Source: a virus
Lineage: Duplodnaviria > Heunggongvirae > Uroviricota > Caudoviricetes
DNA: 41,766 nt
IMG/VR virus record: IMGVR_UViG_2531839131_000018
Reading direction: 5' to 3' (one strand)
Below the pieces are notes generated by a model. The model made no database searches and was not told where the DNA came from. It saw only the letters and a program-made list of their open reading frames with translations. Each line of letters opens with the position of its first letter. The stretch's first letter is position 1. Shown here in pieces: positions 1 through 14,548 of this stretch. The position numbers and the translations under genes were made by a program.

Positions 1-1020
1 CTACTTACTGACCACAAGCGGCAAATCCAGTGTTGGGGTGATTTTGGTTTTACGATCGTAAATCAACACCTGATTTTCTGTTTTGTGTCCACTGAAAATT
101 TGTTTGTCGCGACTGCTGCCTTCGTAATCTGAAATCCCTTTGGCTTTTATGTCATGGAAGTTGCATCCAAACGGAACGCCGGCTTTTTGCTCGGCTGCAC
201 GTTTAGCCTGATTCCACCAGTTGTTCAGCGTCTTGGCTATTACCTTCTCGCCTTTGGTTGTGTTGATCACATACTCGCATGTGCCGGAAGATACATTTCG
301 GGCTAACTGGATCGCCGTACGTAATCGCGGAGACCATTCCTTGATTTGTTTAGTGCCAGTCTTGTTTTGCTCAATGTAAATCCCTTTATCCATAATATCC
401 TGCCATTTCAGCTCGAGTACATCACCGAGCCTTGCCGCACAAAGATAGGATATCTCCATTGCAATACATAACTGTGGAATTGCTTCCGCATATATTGCAG
501 CATACTGTTCATCGGTGATGTAAACAGTACGGGCTTTAAGTGTGAATTTTCTGACTCCTTTGCATGGATTATTTTTTACATACCCACGCTCGTATCCCCA
601 TCCGTATATACGGCTCAGACTTGCCAGTTCATGGTTTGCCTGGGTCTTGCTCTCAAGTCCTCGCTTATCCATGAAAATTCTTACCTGTTCAATTTTTACA
701 TTATCAGCAAGCACTTTTCCGAATACTGCCAACAATGCCCTTTGATGTTGCCGATAATCTTTTTGGGTTCGGGGGGCCAGTTCTGTAAATGCAGGGGAGT
801 CCATAAACATGTGCCATAATTTAGCTACTGTCATTATGTTGTGGAGTTTTGCTTTTTCCAGCTCATAATTTTGCCAGACTTTAGCTATGCTGGTTTCCCG
901 CACTCTTCCGAGCCCTATAGTTCTTGTGCTTCCTTCGGGTTTCCATACGTAACTGTAACCATTCGATCTAACACGCGGTGGTAGTGCATTATCTTTTTTG
1001 TTTTTTCTTGGTCTTCCCAT
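1..1020 (-). CDS. int: Phage integrase, tyrosine recombinase family (339 aa, complete; stop at 1-3)
   Basis: Full-length ORF at the prophage end, followed upstream by an overlapping small gene as for lambda xis-int; length and C-terminal R..H..Y-type region fit tyrosine recombinases. attL would lie left of the window. Confidence 0.85.
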   Translation of the reverse strand: MGRPRKNKKDNALPPRVRSNGYSYVWKPEGSTRTIGLGRVRETSIAKVWQNYELEKAKLHNIMTVAKLWHMFMDSPAFTELAPRTQKDYRQHQRALLAVFGKVLADNVKIEQVRIFMDKRGLESKTQANHELASLSRIYGWGYERGYVKNNPCKGVRKFTLKARTVYITDEQYAAIYAEAIPQLCIAMEISYLCAARLGDVLELKWQDIMDKGIYIEQNKTGTKQIKEWSPRLRTAIQLARNVSSGTCEYVINTTKGEKVIAKTLNNWWNQAKRAAEQKAGVPFGCNFHDIKAKGISDYEGSSRDKQIFSGHKTENQVLIYDRKTKITPTLDLPLVVSK

Positions 1021-1240
1021 TGTTCAGCGCCTCAAAATCGGGTTCAGCGGAAACCAGTTCAGGTGCTTTTGGCATCGTAGTCAGTCCGTGTGGAATATCC
1101 CTGCGAAGAACTATTGGTTCGTTTTTAGGACCGATTACAAATGGGATACCGTGCAGCCTTAACTGGTGTTGCTGTTTTGTGTATCGCTCGTATTTCGTGA
1201 TCTCTTGAATCTCTGCTGGCGATAGAGTTAATTCGTACAT
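989..1240 (-). CDS. Putative excisionase / small DNA-binding protein (83 aa)
   Basis: Small basic ORF immediately upstream of int and overlapping its start by about 30 nt, the lambda xis-int arrangement. Call is positional; no strong sequence motif recognised. Confidence 0.45.
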   Translation of the reverse strand: MYELTLSPAEIQEITKYERYTKQQHQLRLHGIPFVIGPKNEPIVLRRDIPHGLTTMPKAPELVSAEPDFEALNNGKTKKKQKR

Positions 1241-1306
1241 GTGGTCACGTGCCTTACAGCATGACCGCCGCCAATATAATTCGGGGACGGCGATCAGGGT
1301 TGAACA

Positions 1307-3673
1307 TTAAAAATCAACCGGATTCGGGATCAGTTTTTGCCAGATTGCTGAAACGTATTTTGCCTGGTGACGGGCATCATCCAGCGCATTGTGGCGCACG
1401 CCTTCAAATGGAATAACGATTCTGGCATCAAAGTCGATTGTTTTTCCCAGCTCAACGATTGTGCGTACATCGCGATCGTTGTAGTAACGCCACGGGCAGG
1501 GGATCCCCTGCCGTTCGTATGAACGGCGCAAAATCGTGTTGTCGAAGTTGGCTCCATTTCCCCAAACCTGAACAAAAAATTCACCGGAGTTTGCGTCGAT
1601 AAATTCCCGCAATTGTAACAGTGCATCATCTAACGGGATTTCATCGGTCATAATGGCAGATTGCGCTTCGCGTGATTGCTTAAGCCACCATTTAATGGTG
1701 TCCCGATCAATGACTCCGCCAGCAGTTTCCAGATCGATAGTCTTACTAAATTCCGGTCCCATATCTCCGGTTTGCGGATCGAAGAATATTGCACCTATTG
1801 AGATAATCGGGGCATCAGGATTGTTTCCCATGGTTTCAAGGTCGATCATTAGATGGTCACATGTCCTGCTGGTGGATGCGTCTATATGATGACCGTTCAT
1901 ATTAATTAAGGGATCTGTCACCTCGCCAGTTTCACTATCGCTGGCATGATGCTGATTGCCGCCAGGGTTCTCCTTGTGTGGATGTTCAGCACCTTCCATT
2001 TCCTCCGGATCATTTTCCTGAACTTCAACCTGATTCTCTTCATTGAATGTTTCCTGGTATGTTGCGTCGCCCATCGCCGCGCCACAATCAGGGCAGTTGC
2101 CCCCACCGCTCTGACCGCAGGTGGTGCAGACTTTTTCCGTTTCTTTCTGGTTCTGGTTCACAGAGTCGAGGGTTTCAATCCCCTTAACCCATTTTGGATC
2201 GTTCGGGTCGCTAATCCCTTCAACAAATTCTCCGCGAGAGGCAGCCAGTAATTTGTCTGCATCGACATGATTTTTGGGCGGAATGTTTTTCCGGGCTTCA
2301 TGGAGTTCTGCCCGCAGTTTCTGATATTTCGCATCAACAGAATTTACCTGTGACTGAGCATCCAGCGGCTGCGTGTTCTGATGATGTTCAGTTGCATTCG
2401 GTTCCACTGTTTCAGCCGTTGCCTGTTCATCTGCCATTGCGCCAGATGGTTGTGGTTTTTCTTCATCGTCCTGTTTTCCTTCTTCTGTTACTCGCTGCGG
2501 CATCGGGGCAGAGGAGCGACCGCAGGCAATATCCACGATTTCCGGATCAGGGTTGGCATGATCGGTTTCAGTCAGTACTTTGTTCAGATATTCAGTGACG
2601 TGTGCGGGGATGACCTCGATCCCAATTGGTGCTTCTTTCACGGACGCAACCACGATGGCGCGGGAATAATCCAGCCCGCCAGGCATAGTGATGAATTTGT
2701 CGCGGAAAACAGAAAAGGGTGGTTTATTTTCAGCGATAATTTCCTCAATGCGTTTAGCATGTGCCGGATGAAGGTTATAGATGTCCACGTCCATTGAACG
2801 GGCCAGTACGCCAGTGGCTACATCGCGCGCCAGTGACGTCAGATCGTGGACGAAACCTTCGCCGCGATCGGTGAGGTTCCCGCCGCCAGCATTAGCACCG
2901 GAAGCCGTGCGAGTGATGCGTGAAACACGATTCCCTTTTCGCCATTCTTTTGTCAGAAGACCGCGATCAATGTGTTCGGTATCCAGCCAGGCTGAAATGA
3001 AATTCTTAAATTCATTGGGCTGATGTTTTTTCGTGATAGAGAACACTGCCTTAATTGCATCAGTCAGGCGGAGCAGGGCGGCATTATCCAGAGTTGTCGG
3101 TTCTGCCATGCTGCGTATGGCCAACAGCAGATTCTGGACATAGCTGTTTTCCTGATCCATCTCAAGAGCAGTAATGTGTTTGCGTTGTTCACGGGTGGCA
3201 TGATGCAGGTATTTCCGATCCCCGGCTGCATACGTAAAAATGTGCAGAAGACGCTGTGTGAACCGCAAAGTGGCTACAGAGACTTCGCAATCCTGGCAAT
3301 CCTCATGGGCGTCTGCCTGCGCGTTTTCTTCCTGGCCTCCCGCCAGTTCTTTGGTTTCTTGAGCATTATCCTGGTGGTGAATGTCGTCTGGCGCTGCTCC
3401 CGGTTTTAGTTCCCAGGTCATGGAGTCTTTGCTGAGTTGATAGCGTTCACTCCAGGTAAAATCGATCTCACCTTCAGGGGGAAGGTCATTAACGACAGGA
3501 AAATTTGTGGCAACAGCTTTAAAATAGTTGCTCAGTTTTTTACCTGACTTAACGATCAGGTAGTCCAGAGTGGCACGGGTCGATTCAAAATCATCACTTG
3601 CCCACAGGATGACGTCAGGTTCACCGGATGATTTTTTCGCTTTCCGTAAAAGGAAGAGTGGTTTTGTGCTCAT
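1307..3673 (-). CDS. Large early protein with C-terminal DnaQ-like DEDDh 3'-5' exonuclease domain (788 aa); N-terminal region resembles the non-catalytic part of RecE (from memory)
   Basis: C-terminal motifs IDLETMG (Exo I), [13 protein letters not shown] (Exo II), [13 protein letters not shown] (Exo III, DEDDh); CTTCGQ..CPDCG zinc-ribbon-like motif; acidic low-complexity linkers. N-terminus [21 protein letters not shown] recalled as RecE-like, unverified. Confidence 0.8.
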
Positions 3674-3772
3674 TGTTTTTTAACCTCAACTCAGATTAAA
3701 ATTACTGCGAGTGATGAATGAATGTCCCAGGTTCTTCACTCAGGCCTGCACACTGTGCAGGCTTTCTTTTTT

Positions 3773-4048
3773 TCAGATTTCACCGTTTAATTTCATTGCG
3801 ATCAGGGTTGCCAGAAATCCGGCTTTTTTTTCTGCGGGCAGATTCTTTCCGATGTGAAACAGGCACATTTTTTTGACACCTTCGTGAAGTGTTTTAACGT
3901 TGCCTGATGGACCGTCGATATCAACCACAGTGAATGGGGTTTCTTTATTTTCTGTTTTAATCACGTAGCCAATACGCTTTCCTTCCAGATTAACTTCGTG
4001 AACAATGTCATCAGTAGTTACAACAGTGGCTTCATAACTGGTAATCAT
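3773..4048 (-). CDS. Hypothetical small early protein (91 aa), possibly RacC-like
   Basis: ATG preceded by AAGGAG at 6-nt spacing (reverse complement of 4049-4066); ORF MITSYEATVV... Family assignment is a guess from length and position. Confidence 0.55.
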   Translation of the reverse strand: MITSYEATVVTTDDIVHEVNLEGKRIGYVIKTENKETPFTVVDIDGPSGNVKTLHEGVKKMCLFHIGKNLPAEKKAGFLATLIAMKLNGEI

Positions 4049-4132
4049 GTTTTTCTCCTTAATTAAGGTTGAGCGAATCACTGCCATTGCTGGCATATAA
4101 AAATGAAACCGGATATTTATTACGGTGCTGGT

Positions 4133-4324
4133 TTAAAGCCCTGCCGGGACTTCGTTATTATCCATGCGAATAACTTTATCGACCGGATAACAGTTACCGG
4201 GAATTTTCTGTTCCGCTGCGGCAGCCATGCATTCTTTCATTGAGCCGTATACGCCAGTAACCATGTCAACCGGTTCACCGGAAACAAGAAAAACCGTCAG
4301 AACAAGTGCAAATGTGGTATTCAT
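4133..4324 (-). CDS. Small secreted or membrane-anchored protein with N-terminal signal-like segment (63 aa)
   Basis: MNTTFALVLTVFLVSG hydrophobic N-terminus; its ATG overlaps the stop of the upstream gene (ATGA), indicating translational coupling. Confidence 0.5.
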   Translation of the reverse strand: MNTTFALVLTVFLVSGEPVDMVTGVYGSMKECMAAAAEQKIPGNCYPVDKVIRMDNNEVPAGL

Positions 4325-4509
4325 TGCCAGCATCCTTTTTGCATCAGGCGTAAACGGGCCAGCATTGAAACAATGCATATTTGATTTAATAGCTCCCGTT
4401 CGTGTTTTCTCTTATTAATGGCATCTTCAGTAAATACGGGGTTACTGATTTTGACACCAATTTCAAAACAACCTTCAGACGTATTGACGTTTGGTAATAA
4501 CGTTTCCAT
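4321..4509 (-). CDS. Hypothetical small early protein (62 aa), possibly Kil-like
   Basis: METLLPNVNTSEGC...; GAGGA Shine-Dalgarno 7 nt upstream of ATG; stop overlaps start of downstream gene. Confidence 0.5.
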   Translation of the reverse strand: METLLPNVNTSEGCFEIGVKISNPVFTEDAINKRKHERELLNQICIVSMLARLRLMQKGCWQ

Positions 4510-5091
4510 TATCGCGTCCTCAACAATGAATTTTGTGATGCGGTGCCTGGTGCCTCCAGGTGACGTTAACCAGTTAACAATTAACGCCGGATACAGAGAA
4601 CCCACCCATAAGAACCAATACGGAGGTCAACTAGCCTTTTTAACTGTTCCGCGTGCGCTTAGCCGCATTCACCGCATCACAAAATTCACTTTAAAAAGGG
4701 CGGCAGAGCAGTCACGGAGTAAAACTGATACCGCCAAACGTCACCAGAAAATTGATAACAGAGGGCGTTGCAGCGGAGTTGTCACTTAAGTGTATGGTCA
4801 ACCTGACAACCCGGTGCTTCATCGGGAAGACATGAACCCCCCGCCATACTTACCGCCGCGCCATTTCGCGGAGTGCCACAACCGGAAGCGCACGGTCGAC
4901 GAAAATTTAACGACAGGCTATCTATGAACCAGCTACCTCGCCGTGCGCTTTCGCGTTATGGTCTGACTTTTCAGGGAAATATCCTTTCAGTAAACTGTCA
5001 GTTCCGGATGCTCACCCGTGTCCGGCGCACGCACTCCACCTCACCCGTGGAGAACTCCTTAATTACCAACCTTAGCTTCGTTGGTTAGCTA

Positions 5092-5310
5092 TTAACGCGG
5101 GTATGTAATCATTCTGGCAATGCTTAATGCCGCTGCTTTTTCCAGCCTGGTGATATCCTGCTCCAGAGCGGACAGATTTTCAGCCTGCTTAGCCCTGGCT
5201 TCATTGGCCCATTTCAGATCCTGCGCTGCATTAATTTTCTGGCGCATCCACTCATAAAGTTCATCATCGGTATAGTCTGGCGCGATGATGACGGGTTCTC
5301 GTTTCTGCAT
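5092..5310 (-). CDS. Hypothetical small early protein (72 aa)
   Basis: MQKREPVIIAPDYTDDELYEWMRQ...; AAGGAG Shine-Dalgarno immediately upstream of the ATG. The same frame stays open upstream to 5907 but the internal start is better supported. Confidence 0.55.
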   Translation of the reverse strand: MQKREPVIIAPDYTDDELYEWMRQKINAAQDLKWANEARAKQAENLSALEQDITRLEKAAALSIARMITYPR

Positions 5311-5436
5311 GTCGACTCCTTGTGGTTCGTGTTGCCTGCTTTTAACCACATCAGGCGAGGTGGTATCCTGAAAGCCGACCAAAGCTTTACGGATAAATAA
5401 GTTATGTTGCAACCACCAATAAATCCGCTTAAAAAT

Positions 5437-5724
5437 ATGAAAATTGATTACTGGTATAAAGCACTTACAGTTGTTGGTGCTGCGTTGTTTGTCTTTAATG
5501 GAACATCTTTTTTTGACAGATACCCCGTTGTTCCACTGGCTTTTTTGTCCTCCGGTATTTTCTTCACTGGCCTTGGAGAGTGGATCAATCACCCTCTCAG
5601 AGTGAGATTTATTGGTCCCGGAGCCGTTGCCCGGGGGCATAACCGTTCTCCGTGCACACTCGGCATTATCTTCGATATATTGGGTGTCTGCCTGATTGTT
5701 ACAGGAGTCGTCAAATTCTTCTGA
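5437..5724 (+). CDS. Possible small membrane protein (about 95 aa), opposite strand to surrounding early genes; SieB-like superinfection-exclusion role is speculative
   Basis: Two hydrophobic helix-like segments (ALTVVGAALFVF, SSGIFFTGLGEW). No good Shine-Dalgarno; conflicts with an antisense ORF on the minus strand, so very uncertain. Confidence 0.25.
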   Translation: MKIDYWYKALTVVGAALFVFNGTSFFDRYPVVPLAFLSSGIFFTGLGEWINHPLRVRFIGPGAVARGHNRSPCTLGIIFDILGVCLIVTGVVKFF

Positions 5725-6005
5725 AGAGAATCCACACACAGGGCATACAACCGGAATACGGCAAATGATTTCACCCGGCTCGATGTGTGGGTACTCGCCA
5801 TCAATTTTTTGTTGCTCCCGTATGCCCATGTTGACCTCATTTCCCCTTAACGCCGGGGTAGCGGAACAAAAACCTGCTGCATAGTTAAAGTTGAACCCTG
5901 CCGTCATGTTCTTACGCCTCGGGCTGGCTACTTAACCCCTGACCACTGCCTGGTAACTCGAAGTATTGCCCGGCGTTCTGTGGGGCGGGGTGGGTTGGTG
6001 AACAC

Positions 6006-6097: not shown

Positions 6098-6388
6098 TTA
6101 TTCGCTGTTACTGGGATATTGTTGGCGAGCATGTGCCACGCTTACAATTTCAATGCTTGAGGCAGCTACTTTGTACAGTATTATGTAGTTAGGGTGAGCC
6201 ACTATCTCTCTCAATCCAGAAACCCGTTCGCTTGGCGGATATAGGTACGGATGCTCAGATAGGGGTAGTACAGATGTTTCAATGCGTATTTTTAGTCTGC
6301 GCGCTGCCGGAGGGTTCTCCTTGGCGATGTAAGTTATGATCTGACGCAAATCATCGCGAGCAGACGGTAACCATAATATGGGCAGCAT
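6098..6388 (-). CDS. parE: ParE/RelE-superfamily type II toxin (96 aa)
   Basis: MLPILWLPSARDDLRQIITYIAKENPPAARRLKIRIETSVLPLSEHPYLY..GLREIVAHPNYIILYKV..IEIVSVAHARQ matches the ParE pattern; start overlaps antitoxin stop by 1 nt. Confidence 0.8.
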   Translation of the reverse strand: MLPILWLPSARDDLRQIITYIAKENPPAARRLKIRIETSVLPLSEHPYLYPPSERVSGLREIVAHPNYIILYKVAASSIEIVSVAHARQQYPSNSE

Positions 6389-6579
6389 TACACGCTCTCG
6401 CTTTCCGTGGCAATTTGATTGATGATTTTTTCCATTTTTGCCATTACTTCGTCGTGCGGAATTGCCGGGCGTGGATCTGCCAAACTTGCTGCAACCTTGG
6501 CGCGCAACCATTCGTTATAGCTGTTTTCTTGCTCGATAGTTTCAAATTCTGAGACTATTGGCGAAAGAACCGTGTTCAT
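6388..6579 (-). CDS. Small antitoxin (63 aa), PaaA2-like by size and position
   Basis: 63-aa acidic ORF directly upstream of and overlapping the ParE-like gene; GAGAGG Shine-Dalgarno 6 nt upstream. Resemblance to PaaA2 of the PaaR2-PaaA2-ParE2 module is from memory. Confidence 0.7.
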   Translation of the reverse strand: MNTVLSPIVSEFETIEQENSYNEWLRAKVAASLADPRPAIPHDEVMAKMEKIINQIATESESV

Positions 6580-6605
6580 AATATACCTCTCCCGTATGGT
6601 TGTGA

Positions 6606-7004
6606 TTATGCTCGACGTCCTTTTTGAGCGGCGAGCCATCTTGCAACGGTGCGATCCATTGATTCTTTTTTGTCTTTCATGTCCTTAAGCATTTGTTCTT
6701 GCTCTTCTTCTGGGAACGCCCCAAATGTTTGAAGTAAATCTCTTTGGCGCGGACCTATTTTCATTGAGTCAGGCACTACAACCTGTTCATCCTCGCTCGG
6801 AGGAAGCATGAACCAAAAAATAGGTCGTGCGGTTATTTGTGAAAGTCGATCTAAATTGTCAGGATTTGGACTAACCAAGCCCGCAGCCCATCGCTGCACT
6901 GTTTGTTGCGACACCCCAACTAATTTCCCAAGCTCCGCTTGACTCCAGCCTGTTTCAGACAAGAGTTTCTTTATTCTATATGCAGTGATCTCGAGTGTTT
7001 TCAT
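6606..7004 (-). CDS. HTH (XRE/Cro-CI family) repressor, RacR/PaaR2-like; likely prophage immunity repressor (132 aa)
   Basis: HTH motif SQAELGKLVGVSQQTVQRWAAG; divergent from a Cro-like gene; operator-like palindromes in the 7005-7110 intergenic region; co-oriented with the downstream toxin pair. Confidence 0.75.
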   Translation of the reverse strand: MKTLEITAYRIKKLLSETGWSQAELGKLVGVSQQTVQRWAAGLVSPNPDNLDRLSQITARPIFWFMLPPSEDEQVVVPDSMKIGPRQRDLLQTFGAFPEEEQEQMLKDMKDKKESMDRTVARWLAAQKGRRA

Positions 7005-11632: not shown

Positions 11633-11843
11633 AAACGGTTTGCAGTGAAAGGGGAGTTAAGTAGAATTGCTGCGGGTGCTTGAGGCTATCTGTCTCAGGC
11701 ATGAACACCAAAAGGCAGATAGAGAAAAGCCCCAGTTAACATTACGCGTCCTGCAAGACGCTTAACATTAATCTGAGGCCCAATCTATGTCTCACAAATG
11801 TAGGTTAGCCTCTTACGTGCCGAAAGGCAAGGAGAAGCAGGCT

Positions 11844-11999
11844 ATGAAGCAGCAAAAGGCGATGTTAATCGCCCTTATCGTCATCTGTTTAACCGTCATA
11901 GTGACGGCACTGGTAACGAGGAAAGACCTCTGCGAGGTACGAATCCGAACCGGCCAGACGGAGGTCGCTGTCTTCACAGCTTACGAACCTGAGGAGTAA
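11844..11999 (+). CDS. hok: Hok/Gef-family type I toxin (51 aa), closest to HokD/RelF from memory
   Basis: MKQQKAMLIALIVICLTVIVTALVTRKDLCEVRIRTGQTEVAVFTAYEPEE shows the Hok signature (transmembrane segment, conserved Cys, C-terminal EVAVF..YE); an in-frame upstream ATG at 11787 gives a mok-like extension. Confidence 0.85.
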   Translation: MKQQKAMLIALIVICLTVIVTALVTRKDLCEVRIRTGQTEVAVFTAYEPEE

Positions 12000-14173: not shown

Positions 14174-14548
14174 ATGCGTATAGAGTTTGTTTTGCCTTAC
14201 CCGCCAATGGTGAACACCTACTGGCGACGTCGTGGCAGCACATATTTTGTATCAAAAGCCGGTGAGCGTTATCGCCGGGATGTGGCGCTTATTGTTCGCC
14301 AGCAGCGACTGAAATTAAATCTGTCCGGAAGGCTGGCGATAAAGATTATTGCAGAGCCACCGGATAAGCGCCGTCGTGACCTGGACAATATTCTGAAAGC
14401 ACCACTTGATGCACTGACACACGCGGGGTTGCTTATCGACGACGAGCAGTTTGATGAAATTAATATTGTGCGCGGTCAGGTCGTTCCTGGTGGTCGGCTG
14501 GGCGTGAAGATTTACGAAATAATGCATGACGGGCAGGTCAAAAAATGA
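14174..14548 (+). CDS. rusA: Holliday junction resolvase RusA (124 aa)
   Basis: Matches RusA layout and motifs (PPMVNTYWRRRG..., RRRDLDNILKAPLDALTHAGLLIDDEQ); typical nin-region position. Confidence 0.85.
   Translation: MRIEFVLPYPPMVNTYWRRRGSTYFVSKAGERYRRDVALIVRQQRLKLNLSGRLAIKIIAEPPDKRRRDLDNILKAPLDALTHAGLLIDDEQFDEINIVRGQVVPGGRLGVKIYEIMHDGQVKK

Follow-up and report, generated by a model that had tools for sequence, protein, structure and literature searches.

What could be the function of a phage protein that joins the N-terminal part of RecE of the Rac prophage to a nuclease of another family, in a locus where no RecT-like partner is encoded? The question is raised by a gene (1307..3673, minus strand) in a 41,766-nucleotide stretch of DNA, hereinafter the window, from the IMG/VR record IMGVR_UViG_2531839131_000018, a virus of the class Caudoviricetes. 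The gene, delineated from the list of open reading frames (ORFs) and from Pfam, NCBIfam and PHROG scans, encodes a protein of 788 amino acids (aa); it starts with ATG, has its stop codon at 1307-1309 and is preceded by a GAGG sequence about 10 nt 5' of the start. The explanation that we favor, tentatively and at somewhat less than an even chance, is that the product is a delayed-early, annealase-independent DNA exonuclease that trims 3' ends and is delivered by a RecE scaffold, in a biological role that we infer.

Under this proposal, the protein is a modular early product of a lambdoid prophage; its gene would be transcribed by read-through from the early-left promoter, and the protein would be made after induction or infection rather than in the repressed lysogen. 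The nuclease head would take nucleotides off free 3'-OH ends, acting on DNA rather than RNA, and the scaffold would bring it to a target or partner shared with the 5'-3' nuclease of RecE and with the annealase domains of sister proteins, most likely DNA ends or phage recombination or replication intermediates. The resulting ends would be blunt or carry 5' tails and would be of no use to single-strand annealing proteins. The closest functional analogy might be the role of T4 DexA in double-strand break repair and DNA breakdown.

The nuclease head

The initial annotation recognized three DEDDh motifs in the C-terminal part of the protein, and the searches bear this out. The head (aa 604-784; 1322..1864, minus strand), a predicted DEDDh 3'-5' exonuclease, matches the Pfam family PF16473, Rv2179c-like, over aa 607-778 with E 6e-67 (225 bits against a cut-off of 27; profile positions 2-177 of 177). 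The motifs are LMIDLETMG (with D611 and E613), VWGNGANFD (D711) and a third, 13-residue motif (H761 and D766); the five residues align with D7, E9, D119, H186 and D191, respectively, of T4 DexA, and each is retained in 72-76 of 76 homologues. With E-values near 1e-66, neither this match nor that of the N-terminal part described below can be attributed to chance. In AlphaFold models of the 788-aa protein, produced with alignments of 60 and 76 homologues, the head has a predicted local distance difference test score (pLDDT) of 95-98. A Foldseek search against the PDB identifies DexA (8KEN/8KEL) as the top match (E 3e-12, probability 1.00), followed by RNase T, REXO2/Orn and Cap18 (probability 1.00 for RNase T, REXO2 and Orn), in agreement with the DEDDh fold that had been anticipated. 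DexA (8KEL, E 3e-7) is also the sole solved relative in a phmmer search of PDB sequences (E <= 0.01), whereas Rv2179c from Mycobacterium tuberculosis is found neither in that search nor among the top 50 fold matches. Rv2179c, the founder of PF16473 and a stand-alone bacterial exoribonuclease, belongs to the family that the head matches over its full length, but the head is fused to the RecE scaffold. Judging from sequence and model, the head is a genuine DEDDh/PF16473 family member with an RNase H-like DEDD fold; the two-metal DEDDh active site appears intact, and 3'-5' exonuclease activity is predicted.

DexA, the best PDB match by sequence as well as by fold, shares with the head the DEDDh fold and all five catalytic residues, but the identity is just about 22-32% and DexA carries extra loops; furthermore, DexA and its bacterial homologue EcD are stand-alone proteins of about 180-230 aa that lack a scaffold. 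DexA and EcD are 5hmC-recognizing exonucleases (HREX). According to the published description (PMC12153337), T4 DexA degrades DNA in the 3'-5' direction in the course of host-DNA breakdown and of double-strand break repair during intron homing, and the E. coli protein EcD cleaves DNA containing 5-hydroxymethylcytosine (5hmC) and protects against T4. That the closest solved relative of the head is a DNA exonuclease was counted in support of a DNA substrate.

The homology to DexA and EcD also raises the possibility that the protein is an exclusion or defense nuclease of the HREX type which, like EcD, would selectively degrade the 5hmC DNA of incoming T-even phages and so guard the lysogen or the induced cell against competitors. 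Conservation of the 5hmC-recognition residues of DexA is ambiguous: W152 aligns with the aromatic Y731 (the position is occupied by W in 40 and by Y in 17 of the 76 homologues), and D169 aligns with F748, which is flanked by the acidic residues D747 and D749 (pairwise alignment, 32% identity). The aromatic and the flanking acidic residues may be compatible with such a role, as is the presence of the head DNA in about three quarters of the complete Escherichia coli genomes, at up to seven places in each. Nevertheless, a defense function of this kind appears unlikely. The head retains an aspartate (D683) at the position of the DexA tetramer residue D90, which is changed to A in EcD; this loss is said to limit the activity of EcD to modified DNA (PMC12153337). 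EcD itself (HAK9828821.1, which begins with MIDTET and ends with IPETYD, and is compared here through its published description alone) seems to be a more distant relative. A protein search against 1.8 billion representatives yielded 11,801 matches with E <= 0.001, and EcD is not among the best 150, the set on which modules were mapped with local phmmer probes. The 23-nt core of the EcD primers has no exact match in the genome or viral contigs. A search of PADLOC-DB 2.0 returns a single weak and generic match, to the Cas-associated DEDDh model PDLC01247 (E 7e-6, 24.8 bits), with no partner genes. Moreover, a gene of the early-left operon with no detected promoter of its own should be silent in the lysogen, and the defense hypothesis leaves unexplained a scaffold that is common to recombination proteins.

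The naming of PF16473 after an exoribonuclease, together with the fold matches to Orn, REXO2 and the CBASS protein Cap18, suggests another alternative, namely counter-defense or degradation of RNA or oligonucleotides during lytic growth. By analogy with Orn, REXO2 and Rv2179c, the protein would then attack a nucleic acid of host immunity that has a free 3' end, such as complementary DNA of the retron/DRT type, linear oligonucleotide signals, or guide and regulatory RNAs. The lytic-phase expression that we infer for the gene fits such a role, and so does the location, given that the early-left accessory regions of lambdoid phages often hold host-takeover genes and that dicB and DicF are encoded nearby. 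We give this alternative little credence, however, because the closest solved relative is a DNA exonuclease, because recombination proteins, and no known anti-defense proteins, make up the sister architectures on this scaffold, and because, by established enzymology, cyclic signals are unsuitable for a DEDDh exonuclease that depends on 3' ends.

The scaffold and its relationship to RecE

The likeness of the N-terminal region to the non-catalytic part of Rac RecE, suggested in the initial annotation, turned out to be extensive. Pfam identifies PF06630, Exonuc_VIII, at aa 2-182 (E 3e-66), and in a BLASTP comparison aa 1-589 are 89% identical to RecE of Rac-SA53, with no similarity past aa 589, a position inside linker 3 (see below). 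The NCBIfam equivalog model of RecE, NF007259, aligns at its positions 1-603 of 877 with aa 1-591; as the nuclease part of this model finds no counterpart, the score of 909 bits remains below the cut-off of 1269. The PD-(D/E)XK domain, PF12684, for which Rac-SA53 RecE has a Pfam match, has none in the 788-aa protein. The crystallized fragment of RecE is reported to begin at residue 606. In a 2023 review, the nuclease domain of RecE starts at residue 564 of 866, the N-terminus of about 600 residues is still termed "of unknown function", and full-length RecE is reported to behave differently from the nuclease domain alone (PMC11611040). Thus, the RecE homology of the 788-aa protein ends at the end of an acidic linker, approximately where the nuclease domain of RecE begins, so that the description of this gene as a nuclease-domain swap on a RecE scaffold is literally right. 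The scaffold covers the non-catalytic part of Rac RecE only, and the RecE PD-(D/E)XK domain is absent from the protein.

The models and alignments divide the scaffold, all of it on the minus strand, into two folded domains and a middle module that are separated from each other and from the head by three linkers. Scaffold domain 1 (aa 1-95; 3389..3673; pLDDT about 77-93) is a small alpha/beta domain that corresponds to the first half of Exonuc_VIII, and scaffold domain 2 (aa 125-396; 2486..3301; pLDDT 86-97) is an all-helical core with distant similarity to the YdfE/Tritos-type N-terminus discussed below. The long acidic linkers noted in the initial annotation are there: linker 1 (aa 96-124; 3302..3388; pLDDT below 50), linker 2 (aa 397-443; 2345..2485; pLDDT 30-38) and linker 3 (aa 532-603; 1865..2080; pLDDT 37-52 over aa 532-584) are predicted to be disordered over aa 96-124, 397-443 and about 532-584, stretches that are rich in D and E in the translation (the acidity of linker 1 was assessed by eye), and linker 3 is under relaxed constraint. 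The middle module (aa 444-531; 2081..2344) consists of a long helix, a 28-residue stretch and the motif CxxC-x7-CxxC; its helices are modeled at aa 441-463 and 472-479 with pLDDT of 67-86, and BLASTP comparisons with RecE and with the Tritos protein indicate that this module is common to Rac RecE and to both N-terminal types of DEDDh fusion. Of the zinc ribbon-like CxxC..CxxC element that had been proposed here, the cysteines stand and the ribbon does not gain support from the structure. The four residues (C516-x2-C519-x7-C527-x2-C530; 2084..2128, minus strand) are conserved in six of six close relatives from E. coli and Salmonella as well as in Rac RecE, but are missing from distant fused relatives; the Pfam family DZR is matched with an E-value of only 0.46, and the pLDDT of the region is about 55. 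The zinc ribbon is therefore best considered putative, on the strength of the four conserved cysteines.

Rac RecE and the 788-aa protein thus share the N-terminal 589 aa (including Exonuc_VIII, the helical core, the four cysteines and the acidic linkers), the same 11-residue protein start, an upstream racC gene and a position in the early-left operon near xis-int. They differ in that RecE has the PD-(D/E)XK domain and 5'-3' polarity, whereas 3'-5' polarity is predicted for the 788-aa protein, and in that recT, ralR and ydaC, which follow recE in Rac, are all lacking downstream of the 788-aa gene. The protein is not a RecE because two defining features, the PD-(D/E)XK domain and the RecT partner, are both missing; proteins of this type are often annotated as "exodeoxyribonuclease VIII" in databases.

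The slot before xis-int and the other heads

As originally described, the gene lies directly upstream of xis-int on the same strand. The excisionase gene (989..1240, minus strand; PHROG 1266, E 7e-23) is immediately downstream in the same operon and is followed by the gene of a 339-aa tyrosine integrase (1..1020, minus strand), which is 95% identical at the DNA level to the integrase of a prophage that adjoins yccA in strain JNE25-003. Directly upstream is a racC-like gene (3773..4096, minus strand; PHROG 4778), contiguous with the match to Rac-SA53 that covers racC. In the 99-bp intergenic region (3674..3772, minus strand), a promoter/terminator scan and inspection of the sequence revealed no promoter-like site or terminator on the sense strand, which suggests that the exonuclease gene is read through from the early-left operon. 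A 10-bp G+C-rich hairpin at 3742-3764, between the racC-like and exonuclease genes, is followed by a T-run on the plus strand only and would terminate antisense (rightward) transcription, not the operon. The exonuclease gene accordingly looks like the last early-left gene, with delayed-early expression predicted after induction.

No annealase of the RecT, Bet, Erf or Sak type is found among the 30 other ORFs that were scanned with PHROG profiles, which cover the early and late-regulatory regions of the window; the next genes are xis and int, and the initial statement that an adjacent annealing protein is lacking holds. The same arrangement recurs in Tritos, JNE25-003, Evi and the loci P0018, P0133, P0137, P0141 and P0140, where the fusion is in every case the last early-left gene before xis and/or int and recT does not follow; together with the window there are nine independent contexts, down to about 40% identity, with the same slot and no RecT. 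No gene in the complete Tritos genome is annotated as an annealase. In Rac-SA53, the same slot is occupied by recE-recT-ralR-ydaC. The predicted polarity of the head would account for this difference, given that a 3'-5' nuclease leaves ends that annealases cannot use, and the missing RecT is thereby explained. Because annealases are unable to use 5' tails or blunt ends, the gene would be a one-gene, annealase-independent end-trimming module rather than a SynExo recombinase.

The slot is nonetheless that of recombination genes, being shared with recE-recT and with the scaffold-Rad52-like genes described below, and a RusA resolvase is encoded in the window (14174-14548; PHROG scan). The DEDDh fusion might therefore take part in an unconventional form of recombination, together with the host proteins RecA, RecFOR or RecJ or with an unrecognized phage annealase encoded elsewhere; the participation of T4 DexA in double-strand break repair during intron homing (PMC12153337) provides a precedent. 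This alternative is improbable inasmuch as the 3'-5' polarity would destroy the 3' tails that, as is well established, are required by RecA and annealases, and no annealase is detected among the scanned ORFs of the window or in the annotation of Tritos.

The main argument for placing the DEDDh version in the biology of DNA ends or recombination comes from the other proteins that carry the scaffold. In three representative clusters, P0134, P0154 (gene L014/L015 6001-8445) and P0265 (gene L016 6001-8208), a C-terminal domain of about 260 aa replaces the nuclease on the same N-terminal scaffold types. This domain shows no significant Pfam match (PF04098, Rad52_Rad22, appears at E 0.01 for one of the three proteins); however, among its stand-alone homologues (E 1e-57 to 1e-61), some are named "Rad52/Rad22 family DNA repair protein" and some have a precomputed match to PF04098. 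The scaffold-Rad52-like genes occupy the same slot before xis-int as the window gene and are followed by a Sipho_Gp157 gene, but their products end in a head of the Rad52-like annealing type, not in a nuclease. This architecture is represented by PHROG 2489 (728 aa), for which the label "exonuclease" is probably wrong; together with "exodeoxyribonuclease VIII", it belongs to the many misleading names in the databases. In two further clusters, P0127 (703 aa) and P0211 (615 aa), a RecE-type scaffold is joined directly to the RecT domain PF03837; either real fusions or in-frame deletions within recE-recT may have given rise to them. Finally, P0197 (732 aa) and P0261 (641 aa) share a C-terminal tail of 220-360 aa (E 1e-23) that matches PHROG 26058, of unknown function, and has no Pfam match. 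The scaffold is thus associated with nucleases as well as with annealases, the two halves of phage recombination modules.

A short conserved motif of the disordered linker that follows the scaffold, GxG[VIMF][FY]S[IV][ED][GNS]L, is found with any head type in 19 of the 56 long representatives (carriers are P0137-9, P0142-3, P0146-7, P0151, P0154-5, P0158, P0161, P0189, P0193, P0197, P0229, P0246 and P0261), at approximately the site that is occupied by the four cysteines in the window protein, Rac RecE and the Tritos-type proteins. This motif may be a docking site for some partner. One may go further and view the RecE N-terminus as a portable delivery platform that temperate phages of enterobacteria equip with interchangeable heads (5'-3' PD-(D/E)XK, 3'-5' DEDDh, Rad52- or RecT-like, and at least one further tail) and that recruits a partner via the scaffold or via linker motifs (the four cysteines or GxGVFSIEGL). 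The DEDDh version would then be no degenerate RecE but a separate and widespread module, encoded by a single gene, independent of annealases and with its own function, for example end trimming that shapes recombination or the access of RecBCD, or the exclusion of competing phages. This general view is doubtful at present, although we take it more seriously than the defense, counter-defense and recombination alternatives considered above. RecE/RecT is a workhorse of recombineering, and the occurrence of one scaffold with nucleases of opposite polarity and with annealases, in the same prophage slot, offers a direct experimental handle; the role of the DEDDh fusion is relevant to the recombination and mosaicism of prophages and perhaps to competition between phages.

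Conservation, mosaic origin and the surrounding genes

Homologues with the same fusion do exist: among the best representatives, clustered at 50% identity, at least 12 clusters combine the RecE-type scaffold with a DEDDh head, with identity to the query falling to about 35-47%, and at least 18 combine it with a PD-(D/E)XK head. In Salmonella, the homologue P0018 has the same architecture and matches the window gene collinearly, with 79% DNA identity. The ratio of nonsynonymous to synonymous substitution rates (dN/dS) is 0.10-0.28 in both scaffold domains and the head (0.10-0.18 in the head) and 0.5-1.1 in linker 3; both scaffold domains and the head are under purifying selection. A rough neighbor-joining tree of the heads, which lacks bootstrap support, groups all scaffold-fused heads in one clade, sister to the stand-alone heads of the temperate phages F1055 and OS31; the latter are 53-55% identical and are encoded in the same slot just upstream of xis-int.

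A local blastn comparison of the window with related loci shows that the allele is of recent composite origin. Window positions 1-2143 are 95% identical to a DicB-type prophage that adjoins yccA in strain JNE25-003; positions 2135-4097 are 95% identical to Rac-SA53 (the 5' 1.5 kb of recE and racC); and positions 4063-5200 are again of the DicB type. By these alignments, the allele is a Rac patch (2135-4097) in a DicB/Qin-type backbone, a mosaic best described by a double crossover, with one exchange inside the gene. The junction is near aa 511-513 (2135..2143, minus strand), and the crossover, near residue 511, falls inside aa 471-590, a module that Rac RecE has in common with an 823-aa Tritos-type "exonuclease". 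The latter protein, found in DicB-type lambdoid phages (Tritos, mEp460, PPompW and CP-933P), shares with the window protein the middle module, the linker and the DEDDh head (94-96% identical), as well as the slot before xis-int and the lack of an annealase; its N-terminal 460 residues, however, are of another type, with no match to PF06630 and with only the helical core matched distantly. In K-12, the ydfE pseudogene of Qin (L013 4079-4843) matches the first 255 aa of the Tritos-type 823-aa fusion with 99% identity and is truncated by IS2, so that K-12 has lost the DEDDh nuclease head of the Tritos-type gene. The exoD pseudogene of DLP12 was considered as another remnant of the family and rejected: its translation ends in ...EQWR, like that of lambda Exo, and lacks the family motifs.

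Given this mosaic structure, one could argue that the gene is a functionless chimera, left by accident when a Rac-like prophage and a DicB-type phage recombined. The crossover near aa 511 is recent, the full-length combination is found in none of the 5426 complete E. coli genomes, and the K-12 relative is truncated in the ydfE pseudogene. However, the frame is intact, the dN/dS values of all folded parts remain at 0.10-0.28 also against the Salmonella homologue with 79% DNA identity, the combination of Exonuc_VIII with DEDDh is conserved down to about 35-47% identity, and the catalytic residues are in place. A chimera without function is thus highly improbable, far more so than any of the other alternatives.

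At the DNA level, the whole 2.4-kb gene is found in one place in 0 of 5426 complete E. coli genomes because of mosaicism, whereas the head DNA (window 1307-1900) is present in 4053 of them (about 75%), in up to seven places per genome. The products are named "exonuclease", "3'-5' exonuclease" or "3'-5' exoribonuclease domain-containing protein"; the head is mostly attached to the different, YdfE-type N-terminus, and enterohemorrhagic strains have several copies. Proteins identical to that of the window are available at NCBI (HFK1300041.1 and HGU0227562.1, "3'-5' exoribonuclease"), and the 90% cluster includes ENA98469.1 and WP_001479275.1 ("exonuclease"); the protein occurs on about 20 contigs. 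The architecture is also catalogued in Pfam, in PHROG 607/2082/20376 and at NCBI under the names "exonuclease", "RecE family exodeoxyribonuclease" and "3'-5' exoribonuclease". The Exonuc_VIII-DEDDh gene is not rare, being catalogued and very frequent in E. coli prophages, and the initial annotation underestimated how ordinary it is. A literature search for the scaffold-DEDDh fusion found no paper and no experimental characterization, so that the family is catalogued rather than characterized. The gene is an uncharacterized variant of a known system to which the modular pattern of heads on the scaffold adds interest, and the DEDDh fusion is probably one of the most frequent early genes of E. 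coli prophages to have gone unstudied.

Upstream of the racC-like gene, on the minus strand, are ydfD-like and dicB-like ORFs (4133-4605) and the small RNA DicF (4698-4749; Rfam RF00039, 76.7 bits). This order, racC followed by ydfD-like, dicB-like and DicF, led to the rejection of kil/ydaE, which had been placed upstream on the basis of a list of phage matches. The next ORF, of 271 aa (5092-5907, minus strand), matches three different PHROGs of unknown function with its segments aa 1-27, 31-170 and 200-267 and has no Pfam match; it may be a composite, or the ORF may have been called too long. The cI-like repressor is separated from the early-left genes by a pair (6098-6639, minus strand) that encodes a ParE toxin (PF05016) and a PaaA2-type antitoxin (PF21217). 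At the right end of the window, a 321-aa ORF (40755-41720, minus strand), on the strand opposite to the tail genes, has no PHROG match. Rightward of the cI-like repressor are cro-like and cII-like genes, O-like and DnaC-like replication genes, hok/sok and a DUF968/HNH protein; the sok antisense RNA (11674-11849, plus strand; RF01794, 120 bits) implies that the nin-like region holds a type I toxin-antitoxin locus, hok/sok. Further to the right are RusA, Q, a DNA methyltransferase, tRNAs, lysis genes and terminase. The methyltransferase, 3' of Q, is split over two adjacent ORFs of 209 and 137 aa (15943-16992 and 17042-17288, plus strand; PHROGs 6025 and 6952), and these are followed by two tRNA genes.

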